A stretch of 64,000 bases of DNA from Acutalibacteraceae bacterium (GCA_051880555.1 JBJEOE010000022.1:10784-74783), one strand, 5' to 3'. Numbered from the stretch's first letter, positions 5,226 to 35,650 are shown. Notes: generated from the sequence alone by a model not told the origin. Numbers and translations are program-made.

Positions 5226-6055
5226 TGGCAAGAAAAGCGGCAGATATAGTATTATATGTTTTGCTTATTATCCTTGCCGCCGCCTTTGTTTTTCCCGTAG
5301 CGGTGGTATTGATAAACTCCTTTAAGGCAAAGTTTTCCATTAACGCAAGCCCCTTCACCTTGCCTATGGGGGACGATTTTGTCGGCTTCTCAAACTATTC
5401 CGAGGGCATTAAAACCACGGGCTTCCCCGCCGCCTTCGGCTGGTCGCTCTTTATAACCCTCTTTTCGGTCGCCGCAATAATAATATTTACCTCAATGTGC
5501 GCGTGGTATATAGTAAGGGTTAAAACCAAATTTACCTCGCTTTTATACTACGCGCTGGTATTTTCAATGATTGTTCCCTTTCAGATGGTAATGTTTACGA
5601 TGTCAAAAATCGCAAATGTCTTGCATCTTGACAATCCTTTTGGTATAATACTAATATATTTAGGCTTCGGCGCGGGGCTTTCGGTCTTTATGTTCACGGG
5701 ATTTATCAAAACGGTGCCGTTAGGTATTGAAGAAGCCGCCACTATCGACGGCTGTTCTCCCTTCCAGACCTACTGGCAGGTAGTTTTCCCGATTTTAAAG
5801 CCAACCGCTATAACCGTTGCTATTTTAAACACAATGTGGATTTGGAACGATTATCTTCTCCCGTATCTCGTAATCGGCAGGGATTATAAAACGATTCCCA
5901 TTGCCGTTCAGTATTTAAAGGGCGGCTACGGCTCGGTTGATATGGGGGCTATGATGGCAATGCTGGTGCTGTCCATTATTCCTGTAGTCGTTTTTTATCT
6001 ATTTGGTCAAAAATATATTATTAAAGGGGTTGCGGCGGGTGCTGTTAAAGGGTAA
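5225..6055 (+). CDS. Carbohydrate ABC transporter permease (MalG-like)
   Basis: 276-aa polytopic protein with an EAA loop (GIEEAATIDGCSPFQTYWQVVFP). Translationally coupled to the upstream permease. Confidence 0.9.
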   Translation: MARKAADIVLYVLLIILAAAFVFPVAVVLINSFKAKFSINASPFTLPMGDDFVGFSNYSEGIKTTGFPAAFGWSLFITLFSVAAIIIFTSMCAWYIVRVKTKFTSLLYYALVFSMIVPFQMVMFTMSKIANVLHLDNPFGIILIYLGFGAGLSVFMFTGFIKTVPLGIEEAATIDGCSPFQTYWQVVFPILKPTAITVAILNTMWIWNDYLLPYLVIGRDYKTIPIAVQYLKGGYGSVDMGAMMAMLVLSIIPVVVFYLFGQKYIIKGVAAGAVKG

Positions 6056-7657: not shown

Positions 7658-8219
7658 TTGGATGAAAAAGCAACCCTTAAAAAAGTGATTGAAAGACTTT
7701 CGAGAAATCTTAAATCGTTTGAAAGCGGTGGAAAACTTTTTGAAAATTATCTCAATACCGTAAAAGGCGTCATAGGGGATAAAAGCATTTTAGTTATAGA
7801 CGGCGGAGATATTACCAAAAATTGCGCAACAAAGATGGAAGGAATAGCTTCGGTGCGTGACGGCGGTACGGGCGAATATCGCAACGGCTACCATACATTA
7901 CTACAAATATCTTTTGTCACACAGGGAAAATTTCGTAATTCGGGCAAAAAAGAACAGAGATGTCCTCTACCACGGGGAGAAAATAAATATCCTAAAGCTC
8001 GCACAGAAATTCAAAGGGAAATACAGTCTTAAATTCACCCAAAAGAACGGTACAATCACCGATTGCAAGATTTCTGTAATACCGATAAAGCTGCCGTGCA
8101 GACCGCAGGATGATTTGAATTTAGTTACTGATTGCCTTTGTGTCGGTCTGTTTCCTTTGCTTTTATTCCAAACATCTAAAAATTCGTCGTATTCTTTATC
8201 TCTATCACGCATTGGATAA
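7658..8219 (+). pseudogene. Degraded DDE (IS4-like) transposase, split over two frames
   Basis: Two overlapping frames (7658-8032 and 7857-8219). They give ...ILVIDGGDITKNCATKMEGIASVRDGGTGEYRNGYH... and ...HRENFVIRAKKNRDVLYHGEKINILKLAQKF...LPCRPQDDLNLV. This is transposase-like but far too short and is frameshifted. Confidence 0.5.
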
Positions 8220-8322
8220 ACTCCTTGCTTTCCAAACTCTCTCCAAAACGGCAAATACGTTATTTGTCGCTTTGGAGAGAGGGCTATCCTACCGGAATAG
8301 CCTTTCTCTTTTATTTGCTTGA

Positions 8323-9120
8323 TCAGAATTTACCTCCGCCGCCTCCGTGCGTTCTGCCGGAGGAGGAAGTGTGTGTGCGGGAGCCGCCGGAGGTTGACTC
8401 TTTCGGCTTCGCATGACGGTCTATGTGCTTGTAAAGGAAAAAGTCACGGGACTGAGTAACTTTCATACTTCCGGTTTTCACGTAATCTGCAGCTTCCGCC
8501 TGTCGGCGTACCGTTTTTAGCTTGCCTTTCATTCTTCCGGTTATAATAAGTGCAACAGCCAAACCTATCCCTAATGATACGAGAAGACTTCTTATGTAAT
8601 TAAAATCTTCTTTTGGAAGATCATCTACATCAAATGGGTCACCGCTTCGAGCCATATTGATGAATTCATCGCAGAGGTCGGCATAGGTTACAAAAGCGTC
8701 GTAATAATCCCCATCGCCTAAATCATCCACAAACTGCTCTGCCATATATTCACGACCGGCATCGGTAACGGCTGTAATTCCGTAACCCGAAGTTGAGATA
8801 TACCAATCGGAATTTTCCATGCTTATGAGCAGTAAAACACCGTCCTCGGCATAGCAGTTAAAGTCATAAAAATCATCGGCATAATCTCTCGGTGTTTCGC
8901 CGTCCAAATCATTTACAGTGACGATCACAATATCCATCTGCTGATTGCTGCTTATGTTCGCAAGCTTTGACAGCAAGGCGCTTTCCTCTCTATCAGTAAG
9001 AAGATCTGCATTGTCAACGAGCAGGGGCATATTACCCTGTGCGAAGGCAGGCACAGACAGGCTCAGGCACAGGAGAACAGCAAACAGAATTCCAAATAAT
9101 CTTTTCTTCATTGCCTGCAC
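8323..9120 (-). CDS. TPM-domain protein (YgcG/YdjH-like), secreted domain + TM + Gly-rich tail
   Basis: Signal peptide, then LVDNADLLTDREESALLSKLANISSNQQMDIVIVTV...GVLLLISMENSDWYISTSGYG (TPM phosphatase-like fold signature). A TM segment and a C-terminal GGGGGKF follow. Confidence 0.8.
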   Translation of the reverse strand: MQAMKKRLFGILFAVLLCLSLSVPAFAQGNMPLLVDNADLLTDREESALLSKLANISSNQQMDIVIVTVNDLDGETPRDYADDFYDFNCYAEDGVLLLISMENSDWYISTSGYGITAVTDAGREYMAEQFVDDLGDGDYYDAFVTYADLCDEFINMARSGDPFDVDDLPKEDFNYIRSLLVSLGIGLAVALIITGRMKGKLKTVRRQAEAADYVKTGSMKVTQSRDFFLYKHIDRHAKPKESTSGGSRTHTSSSGRTHGGGGGKF

Positions 9121-9124
9121 CTCC

Positions 9125-10210
9125 TTATAGCAACCACAGCAAATAGAAAACTGCGAAAACGGCAGCCCCTATTAAGCCGGTTAAGCCGAACAGCCACTTT
9201 TTGTAAGCAGACTTGTCAAGCGGAAGATCTCCGACAAAATTGCCGGTTTGCCCGTTCATCGCGAAGGTGTATCTTTGTCCGTTCCATGTGGTATTCAGCA
9301 GCCAAACCGGATACAGAGCATATTTCGCTTTTCCGTTTTGCAGGCGGATACTTGTTGATTCCGGTATAACAGTGGAATAGCCTTGTACAGTAGAGGCAAA
9401 GGCGTTTTCTGTACTCTTTTTGATACGCTCGTTTGCCCGTTCAATGCTTTGCTCGGAATCAACATCATATTTGTCCGCCAGAAAACCTGCCAGATATGCC
9501 GTTTGGAAATCCACAGCACCGGTAAAGTCATATGGCTCAATGGATTCCATGAGTGCGTCATCCATTTTGGTTGAGCCATCCACCGGCACATGCTCAAAGC
9601 CTATTTTGCCGCCACGACTAATCGCATAAAAGCTGGTTTCTGTATAGTTGTAGTTGCTGTCGCTCCACGCACGGACTTTTGTTGCTTTGTAACGGATATT
9701 CGCGTCGGCATCTGCGTTGAACAGCCAAACCGGAACATAAATACCCTTAATTTCATCAATGTGGTTCTGATCCTTAAATACCTTCGGTAACAGCCGCTTG
9801 CCGCCATAATGCTGTTTTAATGCTGCTTTTGCCGCTTTTTTATCCACCTTAAACGGAATGACATAGTCCGGTTTCAAGCTGCCTGAAAACTGTCCCATCA
9901 TTACAACAGGATTTCCGCAAAACGGACAGGATGTGGCGGCAGTGGTTTTGTCACCGACAATTTCACCGCCGCAGGATTTACAGACATAGGATAGCAGTCC
10001 TTCTGTTTCACTATCTTGCCATTCGGCTCCGACGACATCGTTCCATGCCATATTTTCCGCAGGCTCATTTTTTAATTCATTATCATAGGAGGCCAGCGTT
10101 TCCATTTCAAATTCCGTATCACAATACGGACATTTCATCTTCTGTAATGAACTGTCAAAGGCAATGGCACCGCCACAGCACGGACATTTATATTCTTGCA
10201 GTACCGCCAT
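9125..10210 (-). CDS. Zinc-ribbon protein with C-terminal TM anchor (YdjG-like)
   Basis: Two CxxC...CxxC ribbons (CPCCGG...CPYCDT and CKSCGG...CPFCGN) and a C-terminal hydrophobic helix. It sits between the SPFH and TPM genes. Confidence 0.6.
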   Translation of the reverse strand: MAVLQEYKCPCCGGAIAFDSSLQKMKCPYCDTEFEMETLASYDNELKNEPAENMAWNDVVGAEWQDSETEGLLSYVCKSCGGEIVGDKTTAATSCPFCGNPVVMMGQFSGSLKPDYVIPFKVDKKAAKAALKQHYGGKRLLPKVFKDQNHIDEIKGIYVPVWLFNADADANIRYKATKVRAWSDSNYNYTETSFYAISRGGKIGFEHVPVDGSTKMDDALMESIEPYDFTGAVDFQTAYLAGFLADKYDVDSEQSIERANERIKKSTENAFASTVQGYSTVIPESTSIRLQNGKAKYALYPVWLLNTTWNGQRYTFAMNGQTGNFVGDLPLDKSAYKKWLFGLTGLIGAAVFAVFYLLWLL

Positions 10211-10224
10211 CTGTTTCTCCCCCT

Positions 10225-11622
10225 TTATTTTTTATCGTTATCATCGAACAAGTCGCCGCATTCGGGACAGAATTTTGGCGGATTGTGCGGATCTTCCGGC
10301 TCCCATCCGCATTTGTCACAGCGGTAAAGCGGCGCACCCTCCGGCTTTCTTGCTCCGCAGTTTTGGCAGAACTTACCCTTGTTCACTGCTCCGCAGGAAC
10401 AAGCCCATCCATCCTCGGCAGGCTTAGGGCTGCCGCACTCGGGGCAGAACTTGCCTGTTGCCGCTGCACCGCATTTGCATTTCCAAGCACCGGACTGTAC
10501 AGGTTCCGGTTTCTTTGCACCGCACTCGGGGCAGAATTTTCCCGTAGCCGTTGCGCCACAGGCGCATTTCCAGCCATCGGCGTCAGGAGCAGAAGACGCG
10601 GTCTGCTGTGTCTGCTGCTGACCCATCGCAAACAGATTTTGTGCGTTCATACCGCCTGCATTCATCGCCATACCCATTCCGATGAATCCATTCATGGCAC
10701 CGCCCTCGTTAGAGGCTGCCGCCTTCATCGCGTCGGCCTGCGCACCCACCAGCGTAGCCGCCGCCATCGTAGGATCACGCATAATCGCCGTGCGCTGTGC
10801 CTGCTTGATCATTTCCGCATCTTCTTCCGGTAGTGTAACCGAACCGAGAGCGATACTGACAACCTGCAAGCCACGCAGCTCACCCCACTTGGCGGAAAGA
10901 GCAGCGTTCATGGCTTCTTCCAGTTCTGTGTTGTGAGATATGATCTGATTGGGGCGAAGCTCCAAATCCGACAGTCTGCCAAATGCCGGTTGCAATGCGC
11001 TGATAAACTCTGTTTTTAATTGACTGTCAATCTCGTCACGGGTATATTCCTGTTCCACATTACCGCATACATTGGTGTAAAACAAAATGGGGTTGGCAAT
11101 CTTGTAGGAATATACACCGGAGCAGCGAACGGATACATCGATATCTAAGCCGATTTTAGAGTCAACAACTCGGAACGGGATCGGGTTAGGAGTTCCGAAT
11201 TTGTTGTCAATCAGCTCTTTCGTATTAAAATAGTAGACACGCTGGTCCTTGCCGGTATCACCGCCGTATGCAAAACGCTTTCCGATGGCCTTGAAGGTGT
11301 CAAGGATGCTCTGTCCAAGAGAACCTGCGAAAATCGACGGTTCGGTGGAAGCGTCATATGTAAATTCGCCGGGTTCGGCACATACTTCAACGACTCTTCC
11401 TTGATCGACAATGATCATACATTGACCGTCAGCTACGGCAATGCCGGAGCCGTTGGAAATGATGTTGTCACTGCCTTTGGTGTTTGAGGAACGTCCGCTG
11501 ATGCGCTTTTGTCCTTTTGTCACCATAACTTCTTTATCCATTGCCTCGCAATAGAAAAACTCTTTCCATTGATCTGCCAGAACGCCGCCTACGGCGCCCA
11601 GCCCTGCTTTAATAAGCCCCAT
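10225..11622 (-). CDS. SPFH/band-7-like protein (YdjI-like, 'virion core protein'-type) with tandem C-terminal zinc ribbons
   Basis: N-terminus MGLIKAGLGAVGGVLADQWKEFFYCEAMD...ISNGSGIAVADGQCMIIVDQGRVVE. The C-terminus has three W-x-C-x-CG-x5-KFC-x-x-CG repeats plus a fourth variant. Confidence 0.75.
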   Translation of the reverse strand: MGLIKAGLGAVGGVLADQWKEFFYCEAMDKEVMVTKGQKRISGRSSNTKGSDNIISNGSGIAVADGQCMIIVDQGRVVEVCAEPGEFTYDASTEPSIFAGSLGQSILDTFKAIGKRFAYGGDTGKDQRVYYFNTKELIDNKFGTPNPIPFRVVDSKIGLDIDVSVRCSGVYSYKIANPILFYTNVCGNVEQEYTRDEIDSQLKTEFISALQPAFGRLSDLELRPNQIISHNTELEEAMNAALSAKWGELRGLQVVSIALGSVTLPEEDAEMIKQAQRTAIMRDPTMAAATLVGAQADAMKAAASNEGGAMNGFIGMGMAMNAGGMNAQNLFAMGQQQTQQTASSAPDADGWKCACGATATGKFCPECGAKKPEPVQSGAWKCKCGAAATGKFCPECGSPKPAEDGWACSCGAVNKGKFCQNCGARKPEGAPLYRCDKCGWEPEDPHNPPKFCPECGDLFDDNDKK

Positions 11623-11637
11623 AACCTTTTCTCCTTT

Positions 11638-11892
11638 TCATTGGTTTAAGTATTTATTTGCTTGGCATGCCGTTATTTCCAACAGCAAATACCACTTTTT
11701 TGTGCCATTATCCCCATCGTCCAGAATTAACTTGCCCGGATCAGTCGGTACTATAAATCTGTTATCAGCAAGCCGGGATGGGCTGACATTTATCTTTCTG
11801 CAATATTTGGGTGCGAACACTATATGGTACTGACACCTATACTTTGAGTGTGATGTGCTTTTGATTTCATTATTTCCTGTTTTCTTTATCAT
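11638..11892 (-). pseudogene. IS200/IS605-family TnpA (Y1 transposase) N-terminal remnant
   Basis: ...STSHSKYRCQYHIVFAPKYCRK matches the conserved TnpA N-terminus. The remaining ~50 codons do not look like TnpA, and the HUH / catalytic Tyr regions are absent. Confidence 0.55.
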
Positions 11893-12077
11893 TGTTTTTA
11901 ACCTCCTTGTATTTTGGTAATGCGGCTGTCAAACCATTTCCATTATACTTGGAGGTTGAATTTTTCTCCACTACTTTTCGTGGCTTGCTTTTAGCTCGCC
12001 ACTTTTTCTTTTTACTAAAGCGTTCTTTTTCCCCCGGTAGAACCGGAGGTTTTCATCTATTGCCGGACAAAGGAAAA

Positions 12078-12104
12078 GGCGGCAGCGGAAGCTCCGCTAC
12101 CGCC
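12078..12104 (-). terminator. Rho-independent terminator hairpin (paralogue of 17502-17528)
   Basis: ggcggcagcgga-agc-tccgctaccgcc stem-loop, followed on the minus strand by a T-rich tract. It lies 24 nt after the stop of the anchor remnant. Confidence 0.6.
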
Positions 12105-12127
12105 ATCCTTAAATGGTTATCTATCTG

Positions 12128-12421
12128 TTATTTCACAGATTTTCTTTTTTTAGTATCAACAGTAGTTGTCACAATGCCGAAGCCGCTGACGAACAGCAGA
12201 GCGATCCACAGCCACATCATGCTGTTATCGCCGGTCTGCGGAGACTGAAGATCAGCGGAAGACTTGTTGGTATCGTCAGGATTCGTAGTGGTTGTACCAA
12301 CATTGTACTCGCAGGTATAGCACTTGCCATCGTTGTTAGCGTCTGCGTGAGCAGCCTTGCTGTTCTCGATGATAACGCCACAACCTGCTACGCGTTTTCT
12401 CTTGTGATTTTCCTCCTGATT
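12128..12421 (-). pseudogene. C-terminal remnant of a sortase-anchored Cys/His-repeat surface protein (paralogue of 17552-20008)
   Basis: The open frame has no start codon. It reads ...VAGCGVIIENSKAAHADANNDGKCYTCEYNV...SPQTGDNSMMWLWIALLFVSGFGIVTTTVDTKKRKSVK. It shows about 75-80% nt similarity by eye to 17552-17665, including the 3' flank and terminator. Confidence 0.65.
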
Positions 12422-25889: not shown

Positions 25890-27547
25890 TTGCCGTCGCC
25901 TCCCTCTGAAAGAAGCAAAGTAACGGTAACATCCTCATCCTGAATGTCCCATTCAAACGTTCCGCAAGGAATAGACAACTCTGACAATGTATGCTCGGCA
26001 ATATCTTGACTACAGCCTATCTGCAACCGCATTTTTATGAAGCCGTCTTTGCAGTCAAGATGTATCAGCATAGCGGTGGCATCGTCAAGCAGTCTTTCGA
26101 CGATATTTTCATAAAAATCGAAAGCAACGACTGCGTGTTCCAATTTGAGTGTACCGTCGCATTTGCTGTCAAATGATGTGAAAACATCCCCAAGCCGCAA
26201 ATTGTCAAGGGACTCTCTGATACAGTATTCAAGTTCTATCGCAGGTATGATATTGCCTTCCTCTCCCAGCATCAGGAGATTGCCACGCCTTTTGATATAC
26301 GCACAAATCACGGATACCTTTGCAATCGCTCTTTTTGTTTGCTCCGGATCGGTCTGGGCAAGCTTCAATAGTTCCTCTGCTTTTGCAAGCTGAACGGCGA
26401 CTTCCTTGGCAATCCGGTCATACAAACGGCTCTTTTCCTGCGTCCGAGCACGGTTTTCCTTCAGCTCCAGCTCGGCTTTCAGCAATTCGTTGCTTTCTCC
26501 GAGCCTTTCCTGCGTATCACGGAGTTCTTCTATCAGGTCGTTAATCTGTTTTACATCGTCCTGCCAAAGAACATGACCGCCGGTAATTGCTTTGCTGTGC
26601 AGTATGGTATCTCCCAAGTCAACCGGTTCGGCTTCGGCACTTCTCATTACATCCTCGGTCAGTGGTGCCAATGTGCCTGAAACCATACAGGGCTGATAAT
26701 CGACATCAACAATCTGTGCAGATACCGTTGAATTTCGGAACAGTTCGTAATAATTTGTATTAGACGGGATAAGACCGCTTTGGATTGCGCTTTCCAAAAG
26801 GGCAATAATCATTATGCAGTCAATCGCCGCCAAATCACCGCCAACTATATGCATACAATACATAATCCAAAAGATTATGGAAATAACCAAAATGACTGCG
26901 GGGAGCTTTTGAAAGCTCTTGCTTCCGGGTACACGGCTCTTTTTAATCAGCATTACCACGAAATATATGCCCAAGAGGATAAACCACGCCATCGTAATAT
27001 AATACAGAATATAGTATATGCAATCCGACTCGCAGTTTTCAAGTCCATTCGGGAATGAAAAAACAAGCTGATGAAGATCGTTTGTAAAAACCGCTGTTAC
27101 AAGAAATGTCGCAGGTATGTACATATATTTTAAGCTATTTGGTGTTTTATAGTTTTCCGCTTTACCGATATGGTCAATAATGAACACACCCAAAAGAGGG
27201 ACAAACACCATCGGAATATAATAGGAATACCACAGGTAACGCCCTAAATGTGTTCCGTTTTGGGCAATAAACTCCCATTTGCAGGTTCTCAAAATAAGCC
27301 AAAATGCCAGCAGTATTCCCACTGCAATGAGATAATGGCGCACCTGTATATTGATAATTCTTGTTCTGAAAGACGAACACCACGCAATGACAAGGGAAAT
27401 TTGAATAACGCTTCGGGTCATAACCAAAAGCATTTTAAGAATAGGGTTATCAACTTCAGTATGGAACGCCCGGGAATAATATGCGATTACAAGCAAAATA
27501 GCGACACCAATTGTGTATAATATCGTCTTTTTGTTCGTTTTTTCCAT
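25886..27547 (-). CDS. Polytopic membrane sensor with degenerate histidine-kinase-like C-terminus (pseudo-kinase)
   Basis: GAGGTG lies 6 nt upstream of the ATG at 27547. It has about 7-8 TM helices. The dimerisation-like helix reads EKSRLYDRIAKEV, with Tyr where the phospho-His of HisKA_3 is expected. No N or G boxes were seen. Overlaps the kinase gene by 4 nt. Confidence 0.65.
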   Translation of the reverse strand: MEKTNKKTILYTIGVAILLVIAYYSRAFHTEVDNPILKMLLVMTRSVIQISLVIAWCSSFRTRIINIQVRHYLIAVGILLAFWLILRTCKWEFIAQNGTHLGRYLWYSYYIPMVFVPLLGVFIIDHIGKAENYKTPNSLKYMYIPATFLVTAVFTNDLHQLVFSFPNGLENCESDCIYYILYYITMAWFILLGIYFVVMLIKKSRVPGSKSFQKLPAVILVISIIFWIMYCMHIVGGDLAAIDCIMIIALLESAIQSGLIPSNTNYYELFRNSTVSAQIVDVDYQPCMVSGTLAPLTEDVMRSAEAEPVDLGDTILHSKAITGGHVLWQDDVKQINDLIEELRDTQERLGESNELLKAELELKENRARTQEKSRLYDRIAKEVAVQLAKAEELLKLAQTDPEQTKRAIAKVSVICAYIKRRGNLLMLGEEGNIIPAIELEYCIRESLDNLRLGDVFTSFDSKCDGTLKLEHAVVAFDFYENIVERLLDDATAMLIHLDCKDGFIKMRLQIGCSQDIAEHTLSELSIPCGTFEWDIQDEDVTVTLLLSEGGDGK

Positions 27548-27792
27548 CGCGTTCACCTCGCTTTTTCTTAAAAATGTACTGCATTTCCGCACAAATTCCG
27601 TACGGATACAAAAACCTATTTTGTATTATATCATATTTTCCGACAAATTTCAATCCGTCCCTTGTATTGGTGATCTTCAATCGCAAAATGTTGTCATCCC
27701 ACCTGCTAAGTTGATAATCTGTTTATTCTGTTTTTTTGCGTACAGGACTGTCTGATATGCTCCTCCACTTTTACGTTCAATATATCACAACA

Positions 27793-28040
27793 CTAAATCG
27801 GCTCTGTCAACCATCTCACGATTGCGAATCTGCATTGCGGCTTTGAAATGCGCCGCCGAGGAACTTTGGCATATCTCCACTTCGTCGTAATACTCTTGAA
27901 AAGCTCCTTCATTCTTTTCATACTCAGCCGACAGATATGGACTCCCAGTGCATTTAGAGTTGCCAGTGCACCCATAGTTTTGTAGGTCAGTGTTTTGACG
28001 TGCTGCTAGTGCAATGAGTCCTGTCAGTGCATAAAAAAAG
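27793..28040 (-). pseudogene. Possible remnant of a SLOG/DUF1273 (YpsA/YoqJ-like) gene
   Basis: Start-less open frame ...ALTGLIALAARQNTDLQNYGCTGNSKCTGSPYLSAEYEKNEGAFQEYYDEVEICQSSSAAHFKAAMQIRNREMVDRADLVL*. The ...M-x-x-RN-x-x-MVD-x-x-D-L-V tail resembles that family from memory only. Confidence 0.3.
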
Positions 28041-28170
28041 ACCCTGCGTACCTAAAAGGTACACAAGGTCTTTTTTCTCATTATTCTCTTGTTTTTTCTT
28101 TTTTCTCTCACGCTAAAAAAGTTTGTCCTTTTTTGGCGGGTTGAGATTAAAAAGGGTTATACAAGAACAA
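27945..28170. repeat. Direct repeat R1 (226 bp), near-identical to R2
   Basis: Matches 30250-30484 base for base, apart from one ~9-bp indel (cccatag/ttttgtagg vs cccaaaagttctgcagttttgtcgg) and a few substitutions. Confidence 0.9.
28033..28076. terminator. Bidirectional terminator-like hairpin inside R1
   Basis: A7 - gaccctgcgtacc - taaaa - ggtacacaaggtc - T6. Confidence 0.55.
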
Positions 28171-28174
28171 TAAC

Positions 28175-28343
28175 TGTTACAGGACAAACCTTTTTAGCGT
28201 CAAAGGGACAAATTTTTTTATCCTCGTTTTTCTCTTTTTTCTCTCGTTTTGACCCGCCCTTTTTCTTTCTCTTTTTCTCCAATTTTCTCTCCGTTTTTCT
28301 CATCATTGGGTCAAGCCTAATGAGAATTGCGGAGTGCAATTTA
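28175..28343. repeat. Repeat S1 (169 bp), about 85% identical to S2, with a long polypyrimidine tract
   Basis: tgttacaggacaaacctttttagcgtcaaagggacaaattttttta...gacccgcccttttt...gcggagtgcaattt aligns with 29828-29994. Confidence 0.85.
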
Positions 28344-28991
28344 TGAATTACTGCGTTTTTTAGAATCTTCTTTATTGTATAATGTGTATTGAGATAATTC
28401 AAGATTAGTGGTATCTATATCAGTGTCATAATAAGTTTCACTATAAACAAATATTATATCATCAATATATTTTAGTGCTTTTCTATGGCACATAAGAGAT
28501 GATATAGTGGGGCGTGGGTCTTTTTTGCGTTCTATGTACCTTTTAACAGACATTTCTGCGATAATCAATATATGGTTTTTCTTTGCAATTTCTTGTAGCA
28601 TTTTTACGATTTTTGTGTTGATTTTTTTAATGGGCTCTGATATAGCGTTAATAAATATAACATTTGGCTTTTTGTGTATTATAATATCTTGAATAAATTC
28701 TTCCCAACCAATCTCATTATATAACAATGCAACGTCTTCTATAACAAAAGAAATATTGGGACAAATTTTTATCGCTTTTTGTAATTCAGAAGGGCGAAAA
28801 GTTGTTTTGCCGTTTAAATAATTTGCATACGGATATGCTTTTTTGCCGTCAGTCATTAGCAGTAAACATTTTTTGTTTTTTTCTTGGAAGACCTTTGCCA
28901 TATTCATAGCTACATTTGATTTCCCCATTGCGGGGCGTCCCGCAACAAAAACCAACCCACTGTCAGGTAAATTAAAATTTAAAACTTCCAT
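28341..28991 (-). CDS. Stand-alone DnaB-family C-terminal (RecA-like) ATPase domain protein
   Basis: 216 aa. VFVAGRPAMGKSNVAMNMA compares with DnaB ARPSMGKT, and ILIIAEMSVKRYIERKKDPRPTISSL...IDDIIFVYSETYY with DnaB LSQLNR..RADKRP..SDL...AD.I.F.YRD..Y. No N-terminal DnaB domain. Very AT-rich codon usage. Confidence 0.7.
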   Translation of the reverse strand: MEVLNFNLPDSGLVFVAGRPAMGKSNVAMNMAKVFQEKNKKCLLLMTDGKKAYPYANYLNGKTTFRPSELQKAIKICPNISFVIEDVALLYNEIGWEEFIQDIIIHKKPNVIFINAISEPIKKINTKIVKMLQEIAKKNHILIIAEMSVKRYIERKKDPRPTISSLMCHRKALKYIDDIIFVYSETYYDTDIDTTNLELSQYTLYNKEDSKKRSNS

Positions 28992-29009
28992 ATTTTTCTC
29001 CTATAATCT

Positions 29010-29609
29010 TTAATTTTCTATTCTGCATTTTAAAATAATATCTTCAGACTCATAAATTTGTTTTTTCACCAACTCAAAATCAAAAGGTCTATTTGATTTT
29101 GGCTTAATTTTTCTATCTTCCCATTTTAAAATTCGACAAACGTAAATATTACTAAGTACTTTTTCAACACTTTGATAAGATAATTCTTCCAAATTTATTA
29201 AGTTTTCAATTATTATTCTTATTGGAATAATATGTTCATCATGAAATATATCTCTAAAAATAAAATTTTGTCCTTTTATTATTTCTGCCTTGGTTGCTGT
29301 TTTTTCATTATTTTTATATTTTTCTACACATATAGGAACTTCAGATGTACATGTAATCGAATCTCTATAAACAAAATCCCAAATATTTTCATTTGATAAT
29401 TCTTTCCACTTGTTTTCGGCGGCAACTGAAATATAATAATGGTCTTCAGGTATATTATATTGGCGCACGATTTGTCCTAATAAATATCCTGCCGCTTTTA
29501 TCTTGTATTCTTTTCCATTAATAATAGATACTACTTCTTTTTCCTTTTTTGCACTTTTAACCGCTTTTACAAATTCTATTATTATATCTAAAACTACATT
29601 ATTTCCCAT
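29010..29609 (-). CDS. Hypothetical protein with possible His-Me finger (HNH/DUF1524-like) motif
   Basis: 199-aa AT-rich ORF 18 nt upstream of the ATPase gene. The motif is FHDEHIIPIRIIIENL...NIYVCRILKWEDRKIK. The fold assignment is unverified. Confidence 0.5.
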   Translation of the reverse strand: MGNNVVLDIIIEFVKAVKSAKKEKEVVSIINGKEYKIKAAGYLLGQIVRQYNIPEDHYYISVAAENKWKELSNENIWDFVYRDSITCTSEVPICVEKYKNNEKTATKAEIIKGQNFIFRDIFHDEHIIPIRIIIENLINLEELSYQSVEKVLSNIYVCRILKWEDRKIKPKSNRPFDFELVKKQIYESEDIILKCRIEN

Positions 29610-29827
29610 GAAAATCCCTCACATAAATTTATTTGTTTTTTACATAATAACACAATTGGTGTCTAATTAAAAGGACTTTGCAAAGAAAAATCCACCCGAA
29701 GAAATTCGGGCGGATAATTTTAGTTTTTGTAGGGAATAAAAGTGGTTTTATTTTAGGTGTCCACGCTAAAAAGTTTTGTCCTTTTTAAGTATTTTCACGC
29801 TAAAACACTTTGTCCCATAACAAAACA

Positions 29828-29994
29828 TGTTACAGGACAAACCTTTTTAGCGTCAAAGGGACAAATTTTTTTATCCTCATTCCATCCAATTTTTTCCTAT
29901 TTTGACCCGCCCTTTTTCTTCCTCTTTTTCTCCAACTCTTTCTCCGTTTTTCTCATCAGCGGGTCAACTTTCATGAGACTTGCGGAGTGCAATT
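29828..29994. repeat. Repeat S2 (167 bp), paralogue of S1
   Basis: See S1. It is preceded at 29763-29815 by two more copies of the ACGCTAAAA..TTTGTCC motif. Confidence 0.85.
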
Positions 29995-30249
29995 TGGAAA
30001 TTAAGAGGCTCCTTTTTTATCCCGTTTTTTCACCCTCCGTCCGAGACAAAGGGAATTAAAAGGAAAGAAAGGGTTAACAAAGATAAAGTTAGAAAGAAAT
30101 GGAATTACGCTGATGTTAGCGTAGCTTTCTCAGCGCAAAAATGCCCATTTTATGCGGTTTCATTGAGGTTTGCCAGTGCATTAGCAAAGGTTAACGTGCA
30201 ACAGGAAAAAGAAGATAAAGAAGGAAAGAAAAGGATTTCTTATGGATTT

Positions 30250-30484
30250 CCAGTGCATTTAGAGTTGCCAGTGCACCCAAAAGTTCTGCAGTTTTGTCGG
30301 TCAGTGTTTTGACGTGCTGCTAGTGCAATGAGTCCTGTCAGTGCATAAAAAAAGACCCTGCGTACCTAAAAGGTACACAAGGTCTTTTTTCTCATTATTC
30401 TCTTGTTTTTTCTTTTTTCTCTCACGCTAAAAAAGTTTGTCCTTTTTTGGCGGGTTGAGATTAAAAAGGGTTATACAAGAACAA
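30250..30484. repeat. Direct repeat R2 (235 bp), ends 5 nt from the ppdK stop
   Basis: Near-identical to 27945-28170. Confidence 0.9.
30347..30390. terminator. Probable ppdK terminator (bidirectional hairpin) inside R2
   Basis: Same hairpin as 28033-28076, about 100 nt downstream of the ppdK stop. The minus strand has a T7 run after the stem. Confidence 0.6.
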
Positions 30485-30489
30485 AACAA

Positions 30490-33126
30490 TTATTTGTTTC
30501 CCTGTTCTTTAATAGCAGCCTGTGCAGCGGCAAGGCGTGCAATCGGAACGCGGAAGGGTGAGCAGGATACGTAGTCAAGACCGATCTTATGGCAGAACTC
30601 AACCGAAACGGGGTCGCCGCCGTGCTCGCCGCAGATGCCGCAGTGCATTTCGGGACGTACCTTCTTACCAAGCGAAACAGCCATCTCCATAAGCTTGCCT
30701 ACGCCGTTCTGGTCGAGCTTAGCAAACGGATCGTTCTCGTAAATCTTGTTATCGTAGTAAGCGCCGAGGAACTTGCCCGCGTCGTCACGGCTGAAGCCGA
30801 AGGTCATCTGGGTAAGGTCGTTGGTGCCGAAGCAGAAGAACTCAGCTTCCTTGGCAATTTCGTCAGCGGTGAGGCAGGCTCTCGGGATTTCCATCATAGT
30901 GCCTACTTCATACTTAAGTTCAACACCGGCAGCCGCGATTTCAGCGTCAGCGGTAGCAACAACGATGTCCTTAACGAACTTCATTTCCTTAACTTCACCG
31001 GTCAAGGGAATCATAATCTCGGGAACGATATTCCAATCGGGATGATTTTTCTTAACATTGATAGCCGCACGGATAACGGCAGAGGTCTGCATCTTAGCGA
31101 TTTCAGGATAGGTAACCGCAAGACGGCAGCCGCGGTGACCCATCATCGGGTTGAACTCGTGAAGACCTGTAATGATATTCTTGATAGCCTCAACCGACTT
31201 GCCCTGTGCCTTAGCGAGAGCCTCAATATCGGCTTCCTCGGTAGGAACAAACTCGTGAAGCGGAGGATCGAGGAAACGAATGGTAACCGGGTTGCCCTCA
31301 AGCGCCTCGTAAAGCTTTTCAAAGTCGCCCTGCTGATAGGGAAGAATTTTAGCAAGAGCGGCTTCTCTCTCTTCAACTGTATCGGAGCAGATCATCTCGC
31401 GGAAAGCGGCGATTCTGTCAGCCTCGAAGAACATATGCTCGGTACGGCAAAGACCGATACCCTCAGCACCTAACTCGCGAGCCTTCTTAGCGTCGGCGGG
31501 AGTGTCGGCATTGGTGCGAACCTTCAGGGTTCTGAACTCGTCAGCCCAAGCCATAATTCTGCCGAACTCGCCTGCGATTTCAGCGTCAACGGTCGGGATG
31601 ATACCGTCATAAATATTACCTGTTGAACCGTCGATAGAGATATAGTCGCCCTCATGATAGGTCTTGCCTGCAAGGGTGAACTTCTTATTTTCTTCATCCA
31701 TAATGATGTCGCCGCAGCCGGATACGCAGCAGGTACCCATACCACGGGCAACAACGGCAGCGTGAGAGGTCATACCGCCGCGAACGGTAAGTATACCCTG
31801 AGAAGCCTTCATACCTGTAATATCCTCAGGAGAGGTCTCAAGACGAACGAGAACTACCTTTTCGCCGCGAGCGTTCCAAGTTTCAGCGTCTTCAGCGGTG
31901 AATACAACCTTACCGCAAGCGGCTCCGGGAGAAGCGCCCAAGCCCTTGCCTGCGGGTGTAGCCGCCTTAAGAGCCTTAGCGTCGAACTGCGGATGGAGAA
32001 GTGTATCAAGGTTACGGGGATCGATCATAGCAACGGCCTGCTTCTTATCGATCATACCTTCATCAACGAGGTCGCATGCAATCTTAAGCGCCGCCTTAGC
32101 GGTACGCTTACCGTTACGGGTCTGGAGCATATAAAGCTTGCCCGCCTGAACGGTGAATTCCATATCCTGCATATCACGGTAGTGATCCTCAAGGATAGCG
32201 CAAACCTCTTTGAACTGAGCGAAAGCCTCGGGGAACTTGTCCGCCATTTCGGCAATCGGCATAGGAGTACGAACACCTGCAACAACGTCCTCGCCCTGTG
32301 CATTGGTGAGGAACTCGCCCATAAGACCGCGCTCACCTGTAGCGGGGTCGCGGGTGAAGGCAACGCCTGTACCGCAATCGTCGCCCATATTACCGAACGC
32401 CATCATCTGTACGTTAACAGCGGTACCCCAAGAATAAGGAATATCGTTGTCGCGGCGGTAAACGTTAGCACGGGGGTTGTCCCAAGAACGGAAAACGGCT
32501 TCAACAGCGCCCATTAACTGCTCCTTAGGATCGGAGGGGAAGTCCTTGCCGATTTTGTTCTTGTATTCAGCCTTAAACTGACCTGCAAGCACCTTAAGGT
32601 CCTCAGCGGTGAGCTCGATATCCTGAGTAACGCCCTTCTCGGCCTTCATCTCGTCGATGAGCTGCTCAAAATACTTCTTGCCGACCTCCATAACAACGTC
32701 GGAATACATCTGAATAAATCTTCTGTAGCAGTCCCAAGCCCAGCGGGGGTTGCCTGATTTAGCGGACATAACCTCAACAACCTCTTCGTTAAGACCGAGG
32801 TTAAGAATGGTGTCCATCATACCGGGCATTGAAGCGCGGGCACCCGAACGAACCGAAACGAGAAGGGGATTTTCCTTATCACCGAACTTCATACCGGTGA
32901 TGCCTTCCATTTTGTCGATGTACTCCATAATCTGTGCCTGGATTTCATCGTTAATTTTTCTGCCGTCCTCGTAATACTGTGTGCAGGCCTCGGTGGTTAC
33001 GGTGAAGCCCTGCGGAACGGGAAGACCGATATTGGTCATTTCCGCGAGGTTAGCACCCTTACCGCCTAAAAGCTCGCGCATGTTTGCGTTGCCTTCGCTG
33101 AAAAGGTAGACGTACTTGTGACTCAT
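30490..33126 (-). CDS. ppdK: Pyruvate, phosphate dikinase
   Basis: 878 aa with MSHKYVYLFSEGNANMRELLGGKGANLAEM..., the phospho-His region GGMTSHAAVVARG, and a PEP-utilising C-terminal TIM-barrel motif. Confidence 0.95.
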   Translation of the reverse strand: MSHKYVYLFSEGNANMRELLGGKGANLAEMTNIGLPVPQGFTVTTEACTQYYEDGRKINDEIQAQIMEYIDKMEGITGMKFGDKENPLLVSVRSGARASMPGMMDTILNLGLNEEVVEVMSAKSGNPRWAWDCYRRFIQMYSDVVMEVGKKYFEQLIDEMKAEKGVTQDIELTAEDLKVLAGQFKAEYKNKIGKDFPSDPKEQLMGAVEAVFRSWDNPRANVYRRDNDIPYSWGTAVNVQMMAFGNMGDDCGTGVAFTRDPATGERGLMGEFLTNAQGEDVVAGVRTPMPIAEMADKFPEAFAQFKEVCAILEDHYRDMQDMEFTVQAGKLYMLQTRNGKRTAKAALKIACDLVDEGMIDKKQAVAMIDPRNLDTLLHPQFDAKALKAATPAGKGLGASPGAACGKVVFTAEDAETWNARGEKVVLVRLETSPEDITGMKASQGILTVRGGMTSHAAVVARGMGTCCVSGCGDIIMDEENKKFTLAGKTYHEGDYISIDGSTGNIYDGIIPTVDAEIAGEFGRIMAWADEFRTLKVRTNADTPADAKKARELGAEGIGLCRTEHMFFEADRIAAFREMICSDTVEEREAALAKILPYQQGDFEKLYEALEGNPVTIRFLDPPLHEFVPTEEADIEALAKAQGKSVEAIKNIITGLHEFNPMMGHRGCRLAVTYPEIAKMQTSAVIRAAINVKKNHPDWNIVPEIMIPLTGEVKEMKFVKDIVVATADAEIAAAGVELKYEVGTMMEIPRACLTADEIAKEAEFFCFGTNDLTQMTFGFSRDDAGKFLGAYYDNKIYENDPFAKLDQNGVGKLMEMAVSLGKKVRPEMHCGICGEHGGDPVSVEFCHKIGLDYVSCSPFRVPIARLAAAQAAIKEQGNK

Positions 33127-33334
33127 TGAGAATCAACCTCCTAATTTTTTTATGGATATTATCCAATTTTAACTTTTTAAGACATTACATTGCGTAACTA
33201 TCCAATTCATTATAACAATTTTTAATAGAAAAATAAAGGTTTTTTTTCAAAAAAAGCATTATTTTTTTTAATTCTAATATTCAGCATTAAATTAAACAGT
33301 TTTGAAGCCGAATATTTATATAGAATAACAGTTT

Positions 33335-35650
33335 TTAGGCGAACTCGGGAGTGATTTTGATTTCGGGGTCGGCGGTGACCGAAAGCCCCTTTAAATTTCC
33401 CTCGCCGCTTTCGACTATTATATCGACCGCCTTATTTTCAATTTCACGGCGGATAAGGTTGCGAAGCTCCCGCGCTCCGCGCTTGCCGCCGCCGCATTTG
33501 AAGGCGAGATATTTGCAAACGCTTTGGTCGTAGGAAAATTTGATAAGCCTTTCTGCAAGGGACTCCTTTAGCTCGTCAAGCATTATAGCCGCGATTTTTG
33601 AGAGCGACTCCTCATCAAGCGGACTGAATACCACTATTTCATCAACTCGGGCGATAAACTCAGGACGTAAGAAGCCCTCAAGCGCTTTAAGCGCCTTTTC
33701 CTTTGACGCGTCCGCTTGGGTTCTGCCGAAGCCCAAAAGGTTTTCGGTTTTATCACTGCCCGCGTTTGAGGTCATAACGATTACGGTGTTTTCAAAGTTA
33801 ACGGTTCTCCCTTGGGCGTCGGTAATTCTGCCCTCGTCTAAAATCTGCAAAAGCAGGTTTAAAACGTCGGGGTGCGCCTTTTCAATCTCGTCAAAAAGCA
33901 CTACCGAATAGGGCTTTCTGCGCACCTTTTCGGTAAGCTGACCCGCCTCGTCATAGCCGACATATCCGGGAGGCGCGCCGATAATGCGGGAGACCGAGTG
34001 CTTCTCCATAAACTCCGACATATCAAGTCGTATTAGGGTCTCGGGAGTGTCGAAAAGCTGTTCCGAAAGCACCTTTACAAGGGCGGTTTTGCCGACGCCC
34101 GTAGGGCCGACGAATATAAAGGAGGCGGGACGGCGGAGATTGCTTGTATGCACCCTTGAGCGCTTTACCGCCGCGGCGACAAGCCGTGTCGCCTCCTCCT
34201 GACCGATTATACGCTTATTAAGCGCTTCTTCAAGCCCCGCAAGCTTTTTAAGGTCGCTTTCCTGCACCTTTGAGGCGGGAATACCCGTCCAAAGCTCTAT
34301 TACCTTTGCAATATCCGCGTCGGTCACGGTATTGTGGGAGGCGGGTTCATACAGCCCCTCGGCGATATTCTTATACTTTTCAAGCTCCGCCTTAACCATA
34401 GCCTGCTTTTCGTAGTCAGGGTTTTCAACCTCGCTTTCAAGATTTTCAAGCTCTACAGAGTACTCGGCTATTTTTTTATTGGCGAGATAAAGCTCGTCAA
34501 CCGCCTTGTTAGCAAGGCTTGCACAGGCGCACGCCTCGTCCAAAAGGTCAATAGCCTTATCGGGCAGATAGCGATCGGTAACATAGCGTTCCGAAAGCAG
34601 AACCGCCTTTTTAACGATACTGTCGGGCACCGTAACACCGTGGAAGCCCTCATAATAGCCCTTAACGCCCATAAGCACCTCTTCTGCCTCGGCAAGGGAC
34701 GGCTCCTCGACGGTAACAGGCTGGAAGCGGCGTTCAAGCGCCGCGTCCTTCTCGATATACTTGCGGTACTCCTTAAAGGTGGTAGCGCCGATAACCTGAA
34801 TTTCACCGCGGGAAAGGGCGGGCTTTAGAATATTAGCCGCATTCATAGACCCCTCCGCGGAATCGCCAGCGCCGACAAGATTGTGAATCTCGTCGATAAA
34901 GAGGATAATATTCCCCGCGCTCTTGACCTCCTCAACCAGACCCTTAACTCGGCTTTCAAACTGACCGCGGAACTGGGTTCCCGCAACAAGCCCTGTAAGG
35001 TCAAGGAGGTGAATTTCCTTATCAAGCAGTCTGGCGGGCGCGTCGCCGCTCGCTATTTTAAGCGCCAAGCCCTCGGCTATGGCGGTTTTGCCTACACCCG
35101 GCTCGCCGATAAGGCATGGGTTATTTTTAGTGCGGCGGGAGAGAATCTGGATAGTCCTGTAAAGCTCCTTTTCCCTACCGATTATAACGTCAATCTGTCC
35201 GGTTCTCGCCTTTTCGGTGAGGTTGGTGCAATACTGCTCCATAAAACGGCGGCGTTTTTTCTTCTGCTTTTTATCCCCGCCGTCCTTAACGTCGGATTTA
35301 TTTTCTTTTTCCTTTTCGGAATTGCCTGTACCCGTAAGACTGCCGAAAAGCTTATTAAACATAGGTATCGCGGGGGCGGTTCCTAAGTCAAAGGTCTCGT
35401 CGTTAAGCTCCGCGTCGTCGGGCTCTCCGTCAAGCGACATCAAATCCATAAATTGGTCGCTCATCTGCTCGATATCCTCGTCCGAAATATTCATTTTCTT
35501 AAGCATATCGTCGATAGGCTTGATGCCTAATTCCTTAGCGCATACAAGGCAAAGCCCGTTAGGCTCGGCATTAGGGTTCATAGCGTCCGAGAGGAAAACC
35601 ACCGCGGGACGTTTTTTACATTTTGAGCAAAGTTTCATAGCTGTCTCCAT
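33335..35650 (-). CDS. clpE: ATP-dependent Clp protease ATP-binding subunit, ClpE-type (N-terminal C4 zinc ribbon + two AAA+ modules)
   Basis: CSKCKK...CLVCAKE zinc ribbon. D1 Walker A GEPGVGKT and D2 Walker A GPTGVGKT. Confidence 0.75.

Follow-up and report, generated by a model that had tools for sequence, protein, structure and literature searches.

A probable array of Tn7-like mini-transposons behind ppdK in an Acutalibacteraceae bacterium, one of them carrying a candidate defence gene pair

Introduction

Tn7-like transposons encode the DDE transposase TnsB, the AAA+ regulator TnsC, usually TnsA, and a target selector of the TniQ/TnsD type. At attTn7, insertion is directed by TnsD/TniQ to a fixed spacing from a conserved coding motif and occurs in a single orientation. 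Here we describe an AT-rich region (positions 27793-30489) in a 64,000-nucleotide stretch of DNA from an Acutalibacteraceae bacterium (GCA_051880555.1 JBJEOE010000022.1:10784-74783), which we call the window. The region lies between a sensor operon and ppdK, the gene for pyruvate, phosphate dikinase. We show that it is a head-to-tail array of three separate elements placed directly after the ppdK stop codon. One of these, element B, carries two uncharacterised genes. The ends and insertion behaviour of the elements resemble those of Tn7, and we consider it fairly likely that the array consists of three transposase-less Tn7-like mini-transposons and that the gene pair of B is a candidate defence module.

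Defence-rich cargo is known for Tn7-like elements (PMC8649781). Mobile DNA of a different kind has been described at ppdK: in Bacteroidota, the 3' end of the gene is the integration site of PvCTn-like conjugative transposons, with a published attB of GYSGCNCARGCKGCHRTHGA (PMC11005914). Our literature search returned nothing on Tn7-like elements at ppdK, and its use as a Tn7-like attachment gene is new relative to the literature searched.

Results

Three separate elements follow the ppdK stop codon

GC content is 0.23-0.33 over positions ~28150-29800, compared with ~0.44-0.51 in the sensor operon and 0.50-0.56 in ppdK. An earlier note on this DNA, made from the sequence alone, had reported the drop in composition, two direct repeats (R1 and R2) and a pair of minus-strand genes between them, and all of these were recovered. 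Positions 27976-28170 and 30290-30484 are 99% identical over 195 nt, and 27936-27974 and 30241-30279 are 95% identical over 39 nt, with a 9-nt indel parting the two repeat blocks. A 46-nt core of the repeat has exactly two copies in the window, where 0 are expected. We have redrawn the boundaries to 27936-28169 for R1 and 30241-30483 for R2, and R2 ends 6 nt short of the ppdK stop codon (30490-30492). A second direct repeat, S, relates 28109-28350 to 29762-30003 at 80% identity.

R and S are parts of a larger unit. Thirteen other loci contain an R-X-S unit with sharp ends, in which conservation is ~100% over the first 60 nt and over the last 45 nt. Element C of the window is one such unit (Table 1). 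R1 is 99% identical to R2, but the similarity ends at 27936 and neither X nor S continues beyond it. R1 and R2 are the ppdK-side ends of two gene-less R-X-S copies, not the borders of one insert. Between them lies element B: in another locus, L001, positions 3838-5491 match the whole of B at 88% identity, and the conserved unit is exactly 28175-29827. The region reads, in the direction of ppdK, as ppdK stop, T, TGTTT, element C, TGTTT, element B, GTTAT, R1, 343 nt and the sensor operon.

Element B is also found by itself. In L214, L215, L216 and L218 it stands directly behind ppdK, with genes ~98% identical to those of the window and with ACTCT on both flanks. It lies at other offsets in L220 and L221, and exactly 5 nt past the tip of another element in L217 and L219. 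These arrangements bear on the view that R1, the genes and R2 form one unit left by the single-crossover (Campbell-type) integration in R of a ~2.3-kb circle, a mini-replicon or satellite whose replication the ATPase would serve. Near-identical direct repeats flanking the genes, the DnaB relationship of the ATPase and the frequent occurrence of homologues on 1.4-2.3 kb contigs all agree with a circle. R, however, is part of a separate gene-less element that stands alone in many genomes, B occurs without R and with its own 5-bp duplication, and sites lacking any element also lack R, so R is not a native ppdK-downstream sequence on which the crossover could have acted. Neither a Rep gene nor an origin is present, the region matches no plasmid or phage, breaks in assembly at the repeated element ends account for the short contigs, and the ATPase has neither the DnaB N-terminal domain nor key catalytic residues. 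We find the circle hardly credible. R indeed proved to be a dispersed repeat unrelated to the insert, with R-X-S behind ppdK and elsewhere in many genomes, an outcome that the earlier note had itself named as telling against its reading.

Table 1. Features of the array and its surroundings (window coordinates; strand as given, with a dot for features without one)
Feature	Position	Strand	Remarks
ppdK (pyruvate, phosphate dikinase)	30490..33126	-	878-aa open reading frame (ORF); identical protein of the metagenome-assembled genome (MAG) carries this name
Conserved motif CAGGCTGCTAT	30512..30522	-	ppdK codons Q-A-A-I; candidate recognition landmark for target selection
Target duplication of C, ppdK side	30484..30488	.	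AAACA on +, TGTTT in ppdK direction; same pentamer at 29823-29827
Element C	29828..30483	-	656 bp, no genes; R2 30241-30483, X 30004-30240, S2 29828-30003
C/B spacer	29823..29827	.	5 nt (AAACA); second copy of C target duplication
Element B	28175..29822	-	1,648 bp, two genes; tips TGTTATGG... (29822) and ...TGTTACAG (28175 on +)
B, ppdK-side end	29757..29822	-	8-bp tip and two 19-nt motif copies (29797-29815, 29763-29781)
Hairpin terminator inside ppdK-side end of B	29690..29715	-	ATCCGCCCGAATTTCTTCGGGTGGAT, then T run
Cargo gene 1	29010..29609	-	ORF, 199 aa
Cargo gene 2	28341..28991	-	ORF, 216 aa; Pfam DnaB_C
S1, far end of B	28175..28350	-	motif copy 28182-28200, tip 28175
B/third-element spacer	28170..28174	.	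5 nt (ATAAC); unlike the other flank of B
R1, ppdK-side end of truncated third R-type element	27936..28169	-	234 nt; tip 28169, motif 28110-28128, terminator 28034-28076
Unique sequence	27593..27935	.	343 nt in no recognised element, between truncated R1 and sensor operon

Element ends are laid out like those of Tn7

The elements have tips of the form 5'-TGT...ACA-3' (TGTTATGG, TGTTCTTG, TGTTACAG). An 8-bp tip is followed by GACAAA-type 19-nt sites that are repeated near both ends. The 19-nt motif, GGACAAANNTTTTTAGCGT, has six copies within 2.4 kb and none elsewhere in the 64-kb window (0.14 expected). The unit 28175-29827 starts with TGTTACAGGACAAACCTTTTTAGCGT and ends with the reverse complement of TGTTATGGGACAAAGTGTTTTAGCGT, which form imperfect terminal inverted repeats of ~26 nt, and GGACAAANNTTTTTAGCGT is repeated just inside each tip. 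In plasmid R721 the ends of Tn7 read TGTGGGCG, then GACAAAATAGTTGGGAACTGGGA, then more GACAAAATAG sites. The ends in the window match this layout, with TGTTACAG followed by GACAAACC... and TGTTATGG followed by GACAAAGTG.... The 19-nt arrays are transposon-end site arrays, predicted from their sequence to bind TnsB, and not the iterons of a replication origin for which the surrounding repeats had been taken. The end motif had 0 matches in viral contigs, and the DNA of element B matched nothing among plasmids and phages.

Each element has its own terminator near its ppdK side, at 30348-30390 in C, 29690-29715 in B and 28034-28076 in the truncated third element. The hairpin type of 29690-29715 is also present 3' of ppdK in empty sites. 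A search with Rfam at a relaxed threshold over 27400-30700 returned only sub-threshold noise (PyrR, sRNAs) driven by terminators, and a tRNA/tmRNA scan gave no match. The idea that S encodes a hammerhead-like or other RNA was dropped: it has no Rfam support, and conservation of S peaks at the tips, as in transposon ends. A heptamer distinct from the 19-nt motif, CAGTGCA (TGCACTG in ppdK direction), has four copies in each R and one in X, at 27944-28031, 30172-30180 and 30249-30345, in two pairs with 18 nt between pair members. These heptamers may be binding sites or may belong to a promoter or operator.

Insertion occurs at a fixed distance from a conserved ppdK motif

Insertion behind ppdK is precise. 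In 29 of 30 insertions, the spacing from CAGGCNGCNAT to the element tip downstream is 26-28 nt. The spacing from the stop codon ranges over 6-17 nt, and orientation is constant, with the same end always towards ppdK. The conserved motif CAGGCTGCTAT is a candidate binding site of a target selector. The earlier note had proposed a search for related strains with an empty site. A metagenome scan found such sites in L112, L144 and L150, where the ppdK tail is joined directly to the downstream flank; the single R expected there is absent. Exact 5-bp duplications flank the insertions: ACTTT in L042 and TTATA in L079, both established by comparison with empty sites, TGTTT around element C of the window, and ACTCT around B in L214-L216 and L218. 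Just past the insertion point comes the native terminator of ppdK, so that insertion falls between stop codon and terminator. The view of the region as foreign and mobile is supported.

R and S are conserved at 92-100%, compared with 80-86% for the 3' coding sequence of ppdK. Such a difference would be expected if the ends were conserved intergenic blocks at a variable hotspot that are exchanged whole, with cargo swapped only by homologous recombination between strains. Flanks that do not match, as for the window copy of B, or are not identical, as for many elements, would suit this model, as would the fact that no transposase with matching ends was found. Empty sites, however, lack both blocks, and a duplication of exactly 5 bp distinguishes occupied sites from them. 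Offsets shift by 1-2 nt between copies of the same elements, which in arrays lie exactly 5 nt from the tip of another element and which have inverted TGT...ACA tips with Tn7-like site arrays. Copies of the elements are also present outside the ppdK context (L008, L019, L025, L026, L063). Block exchange is thus an improbable account of the locus.

A site-specific recombinase, whether integron-like, Xer-dependent or of the serine type, might instead act on the palindromic junction of abutting elements. The junction at 29793-29857, a 30-nt inverted repeat with a 5-nt spacer, does look like a recombination site; large serine recombinases are encoded near some copies (L001, L006), and other mobile elements integrate site-specifically inside the ppdK 3' end (PMC11005914). 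The duplications, however, vary in sequence (ACTCT, ACTTT, TTATA, TGTTT) with no fixed shared core, and the point of insertion shifts by 1-2 nt. The elements have no recombinase in regular association with them, and the serine recombinase in L001 belongs to a different element that cut into ppdK upstream of the module. We rate this explanation as highly improbable, and favour transposition at a fixed distance from the ppdK motif.

Several further observations concern the surroundings of these sites. In L008, L019 and L063 the ppdK-side tip of R-X-S abuts a recurring ...AAGGTCTTCGTCTT/A, and in L025 it abuts ...AAGGTCTTCGTCCC, in each case with no ppdK tail. The neighbouring DNA in L008 appears mobile-element-like, with a PemK-like toxin and signal peptidase I recognised by eye from ORF translations. 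Either these R-X-S copies reflect a second target type, or another element has inserted exactly at the R tip. A ppdK tail of ~40 nt (CACAGGCTGCTAT...stop) precedes the module in some non-ppdK contexts, for example at 3799-3838 of L001. Such displaced tails were found in L001, L007, L009, L011, L018, L054, L056, L057, L064 and L076, which implies that in related Acutalibacteraceae loci other mobile elements integrate inside the ppdK 3' end, cutting at the conserved codon motif, and move the native tail together with the module. In L001 the element that cut there encodes ParB together with a large serine recombinase. A link to Tn4451-type elements (TnpX, TnpV, TnpY), which L001 had prompted, was discarded because that recombinase belongs to the element cutting ppdK upstream.

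In L214, where B is the only element behind ppdK, phage capsid-like genes are found immediately upstream of that gene (727-2866). The DNA downstream of B (7676-12220) encodes zinc-ribbon proteins of large size, a PemK toxin and a small serine resolvase. Mobile DNA is plentiful on either side of ppdK in this locus. In L099, L111, L116, L142, L146, L154 and L165, which come from a different taxon, a GC-richer ppdK tail is followed by a box, TTTATAAAG(T/C)AAA, and a GC-rich hairpin. The box downstream of ppdK is thus conserved well beyond the clade that hosts the elements.

Related elements carry other cargo, and an autonomous Tn7-like transposon uses the same site

A scan for the 19-nt motif across 185,579 species genomes returned 76 loci, a total near chance expectation, of which ~40 come from Acutalibacteraceae and other gut Clostridia; many have inverted motif pairs. 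In loci of this clade, ppdK is followed either by a complete R-X-S or by variable cargo between a B-type end and an S end, and all boundaries are sharp. The cargo of sister elements is diverse. Two C5 methyltransferase-like ORFs, recognised by motif, and a 501-aa ORF without Pfam match are found in L082 and L076, and may form a putative restriction-modification system. L027 encodes an Mrr_cat-FtsK_gamma protein, L077 a RES-domain protein, and L045 XRE, zinc-ribbon, SPFH/SHOCT and membrane proteins. Neither a transposase nor a recombinase was found inside the larger sister elements or in their flanks (L011, L013, L038, L045, L054, L055, L076, L078, L080, L082).

A complete Tn7-like core is present in L050 (142-7659), directly after an S tip. 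It comprises a TnsA-like ORF, a 650-aa TnsB, TnsC (TniB, 1.2e-13) and TniQ/TnsD (9.6e-22). A truncated copy of this core in L007 (1713-3469) matches Tn7 TnsB (PDB 7pik) at 4e-25. The tns genes of both loci belong to a neighbouring element with different end repeats, and tblastn of the L007 TnsA and TnsB against the window gave no match. Tn7-like transposons therefore use the ppdK site, as L050 demonstrates, and its gene set is a candidate, and only that, for moving the elements studied here. The first cargo gene of the L050 element encodes a PIF1-like helicase with an HTH domain, and the end of this element contains one AGTGTTTTAGCGTG stretch that agrees with the motif of B-type ends.

The 216-aa cargo protein is a degenerate DnaB-type ATPase

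The second cargo gene encodes a protein annotated as 'DnaB-like helicase C-terminal domain-containing protein'. Residues 9-191 of 216 match Pfam DnaB_C at 3.3e-12, and PDB DnaB helicases match it down to 2e-13 through their C-terminal domains only. The N-terminal primase-binding domain and linker of DnaB are absent. The protein was thus correctly described at first sight as the RecA-like C-terminal domain of a DnaB-family helicase. The AlphaFold2 model (pLDDT 83) has the G40P ATPase domain as its top Foldseek match (TM 0.56-0.62). PHROGs gave only weak DnaB-type matches, and PADLOC-DB v2 a weak mad8 match (5.2e-6, 24 bits).

The Walker A sequence GRPxMGKS is invariant. At the Walker B position (VIFIN) an invariant asparagine, N115, takes the place of the aspartate of DnaB hhhhD, and the residue aligned to the arginine of DnaB SDLRESG is M166 here and lysine in distant relatives. 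Our choice of catalytic residues rests on general knowledge of DnaB. Because the Walker B aspartate and the arginine finger are lost, we infer that the ATPase works as a switch or sensor that depends on nucleotide, rather than as a processive helicase. In the closest subfamily its gene adjoins that of the 199-aa protein, in two different gene orders; distant relatives of the ATPase pair instead with a PDDEXK_4 protein.

The 199-aa cargo protein belongs to a family without a recognised fold

The first cargo gene encodes a protein annotated as 'hypothetical protein'. It had no match in Pfam (E<=1), PADLOC, NCBIfam, PHROGs or PDB by sequence or profile, and tblastn found none among phages and plasmids. 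Together with the absence of such matches for element B DNA, this supports the description of the two genes as a linked pair and not a prophage replication module. The comparison with phage and plasmid databases that had been called for came out unevenly: only the ATPase found matches there, and these were phage DnaB genes of ~25% identity.

A profile search of 1.84 billion representatives placed 396 clusters in the 199-aa family. R49, F122, H126, K162 and E164 are invariant in 100 diverse members. AlphaFold2, given a 29-sequence alignment, returned a confident model (pLDDT 94, pTM 0.86), in which a strand-strand-helix at residues 115-138 carries the FHDEH motif. Foldseek with this model gave best E-values of 2 against PDB and 0.29 against BFVD, neither of them significant. 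The best structural comparison was to an uncharacterised phage protein at TM 0.43 and E 0.39, which is not significant.

The motifs quoted in the earlier note are present and conserved, among them FHDEH, which had suggested a His-Me-finger or DUF1524-type nuclease. The fold assignment itself found no support, although the strand-strand-helix around FHDEH may hide a minimal beta-beta-alpha-metal motif. At E<=1 the 100 family members showed no consistent Pfam family and no HNH or DUF1524 match, the Foldseek searches of PDB and BFVD were negative, and what is left is a local motif resemblance. H126 is invariant among the 100, but H123 and P129 are lost in fused relatives (FTDEHIVTV), and N136 of 'ENL' is not conserved.

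Fusions and neighbours of the family give hints to its function. The 430-aa protein P0068 joins an N-terminal domain of the 199-aa type to a C-terminal SRA domain (1.5e-10). SRA domains are readers of modified cytosine. In P0099 the 199-aa-type domain is fused to the C-terminal part of the PADLOC candidate PDC-S26 (5.8e-18), on which our literature search found nothing useful. P0021 lies in a defence island, where its gene overlaps a WYL gene and adjoins PDDEXK_4, SRA-NUDIX and type I restriction-modification genes. The 199-aa protein may thus be a DNA-directed effector, probably a nuclease, built on R49, H126, K162 and E164.

Neighbouring features of the window

Beyond 27936, neither the remainder of the third element nor the native flank with the ppdK terminator is present, which suggests that a deletion next to the sensor operon removed them. 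The sequence at 27593-27935 has no similarity to any of the loci L001-L082, and a 60-aa ORF on the minus strand (27793-27975) begins within R1. Integrase, Rep, relaxase and phage structural genes are not found among the ORFs of 27593-30489, as had been reported. On the other side of ppdK, a sharp AT-rich dip (GC 0.29) at 33100-33400 lies between the start of the gene and an upstream gene for a Clp-type ATPase (33335-35650), and is probably the ppdK promoter region.

Discussion

The account that best fits our data has three transposase-less Tn7-like mini-transposons behind ppdK, with a candidate defence pair carried by B, and we hold it as fairly likely overall. Its two parts are not equally firm. 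The transposon architecture is well supported and likely, while the probability that the cargo pair is an anti-phage or anti-plasmid module falls somewhat short of even. Of the testable features that define Tn7, three of four are present: the ends, the duplications together with empty sites, and oriented insertion at a fixed distance. The fourth, gene content, is lacking, and for this reason the elements are filed as non-autonomous Tn7-like derivatives.

We propose that a TniQ/TnsD-type protein reads the conserved ppdK tail, and that TnsC and TnsB, supplied in trans from TnsA/B/C and TniQ machinery encoded elsewhere, would then insert the mini-elements. Arrays would grow at the ppdK side and could be reshuffled by recombination between shared ends. 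Once in place, the 199-aa protein of B may attack DNA through a centre formed by H126, K162, E164 and R49, under the control of the DnaB-like ATPase.

A number of observations weigh against this account. The flanks of B in the window are unequal (TGTTT and GTTAT in ppdK direction), and several other elements also lack matching flanks. The window copy of B is not the product of one simple insertion. Sequential insertions were considered and rejected, as neither order fits the 5-nt spacers, and at least one junction must therefore come from recombination between elements. Recombination between shared ends would explain the unequal flanks. Genes of the tns type are found in none of the elements with these ends, no cognate transposase came to light, and the one autonomous Tn7-like element at the site has end repeats of a different, CCCAAAAAT type. 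Target immunity, reported for the Tn7 family (PMC11014353), should disfavour tandems of like-ended elements, yet arrays occur here. As to the cargo, the sister element in L013 carries metabolic and not defence genes, and no defence database model matches either protein beyond the weak mad8 match of the ATPase. The 199-aa protein has no detectable nuclease fold; several of its homologues have no ATPase partner, and distant ones have other partners or none.

The architecture may therefore be right and the cargo have another role: toxin-antitoxin-like addiction, an accessory function in repair or replication, or help to the element itself in target choice or immunity. We treat a non-defence role as a serious possibility, although a distinctly less probable one than defence. 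The failure of defence models to match either protein fits such a role, as do the closeness of the ATPase to replicative helicases, the metabolic genes in one sister element, and the RES-domain and other toxin-like cargo in others. A helper function is hard to reconcile with the movement of identical-ended elements that carry unrelated cargo or none, which shows that mobility does not depend on the gene pair. Fusion to SRA and PDC-S26 domains and location in a defence island, both seen in the 199-aa family, point instead to DNA-targeted immunity, and the ATPase lacks the helicase N-terminal domain. Defence, which the earlier note had offered as an alternative to an integrated replicon, is a plausible role for the pair and its best reading, by the logic of domain fusion and by genomic association.

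One could extend this reading further. The 199-aa family might represent a new DNA-targeting enzyme fold, for instance a nuclease, and act as the effector of a new two-gene immune system, with its degenerate DnaB-C partner as a decoy for, or sensor of, phage replication proteins (such as helicase loaders) or single-stranded DNA intermediates and not as a helicase, the pair being spread among gut Clostridia on mini-Tn7 hitchhikers at a new ppdK site. This extended scenario is speculative, and we think it unlikely as a whole.

The feature described here is real and partly new, and its uncharacterised gene pair offers a credible starting point for finding a new defence module and, possibly, a new effector fold. 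The feature points to Tn7-type targeted transposition downstream of ppdK in uncultured Clostridia that are abundant in the gut. The majority of copies there are mini-elements that lack a transposase and move short cargo, including toxins, restriction systems and the present gene pair, and they make ppdK a compact and recognisable hotspot. A simple rule follows for harvesting candidate defence genes from metagenomes, namely to take the content between two conserved ends. Most metagenomic copies of the gene pair are on contigs of 1.4-1.7 kb (e.g. L218-L221) that end inside element ends. Assemblies thus break at element-end repeats, and in those communities the elements are likely to vary or to be present in several copies. 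The cargo of such elements will be under-represented in short-read assemblies. The short natural ends and an insertion site defined to ~2 nt could also become a genetic tool for bacteria that are hard to engineer. The 199-aa family, with ~400 clusters, a confident model without structural relative, and fusions to SRA and PDC-S26, is a lead to a new effector fold, and the presence of a degenerate DnaB-like ATPase as its partner suggests a mode of sensing that has so far not been described.

Comparison with known systems

The likeness of the array to Tn7 extends from DNA ends to target and cargo. It includes TGT/ACA tips, an 8-bp tip followed by GACAAA-type sites in both ends, a 5-bp duplication and a single orientation. 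The insertion point keeps a fixed distance to a conserved coding motif and falls shortly past the end of a gene of essential type, which is left intact. Cargo is rich in defence genes, and an autonomous element with TnsA/B/C and TniQ occupies the same site in a related genome. Unlike Tn7, the elements in the window are without any transposition genes; they are natural mini-elements of 0.66-4 kb, comparable in this respect to laboratory mini-Tn7. They also differ in their attachment gene, ppdK, in forming like-ended tandems despite the expected target immunity, and in that no cognate TnsB was found.

PvCTn-like elements recognise the same conserved ppdK codons, as a comparison of their attB GYSGCNCARGCKGCHRTHGA with the landmark CAGGCNGCNAT indicates. 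Their integration, however, is site-specific and inside the coding sequence, with the stop codon regenerated (PMC11005914), whereas the elements of the window lie 26-28 nt further downstream, outside the gene, and have 5-bp duplications.

The gene pair shares with Septu (PtuA/PtuB), PARIS (AriA/AriB) and Gabija a logic, and only that, in which a small P-loop NTPase and a putative DNA-targeting effector are encoded in one operon. The pair in the window is likewise compositionally foreign, and rides on a mobile element beside restriction-type cargo. Its ATPase is of the RecA-like DnaB C-terminal type and not of the ABC/AAA15-21 or OLD type, and its effector shows neither a known fold nor a signature of the HNH, Toprim or PD-(D/E)xK kind. 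The pair belongs to no named defence system.

With the DnaB helicases of SPP1 (G40P), Geobacillus and E. coli, the ATPase has in common the RecA-like fold, Walker A and the block ...KDPRPTxSxL...D-x-IIFVY-x-x-x-YY. It departs from them in lacking the N-terminal domain and linker, in having asparagine for the Walker B aspartate and methionine or lysine at the SDLRESG arginine, and in its size of only 216 aa as transposon cargo beside an uncharacterised partner. Finally, P0068 resembles type IV restriction enzymes of the PvuRts1I/AbaSI kind in its layout of an effector domain followed by an SRA reader of modified bases. The protein in the window differs from these in having no SRA domain, and the N-terminal domain is unrelated, by sequence and fold search, to known restriction nuclease domains.

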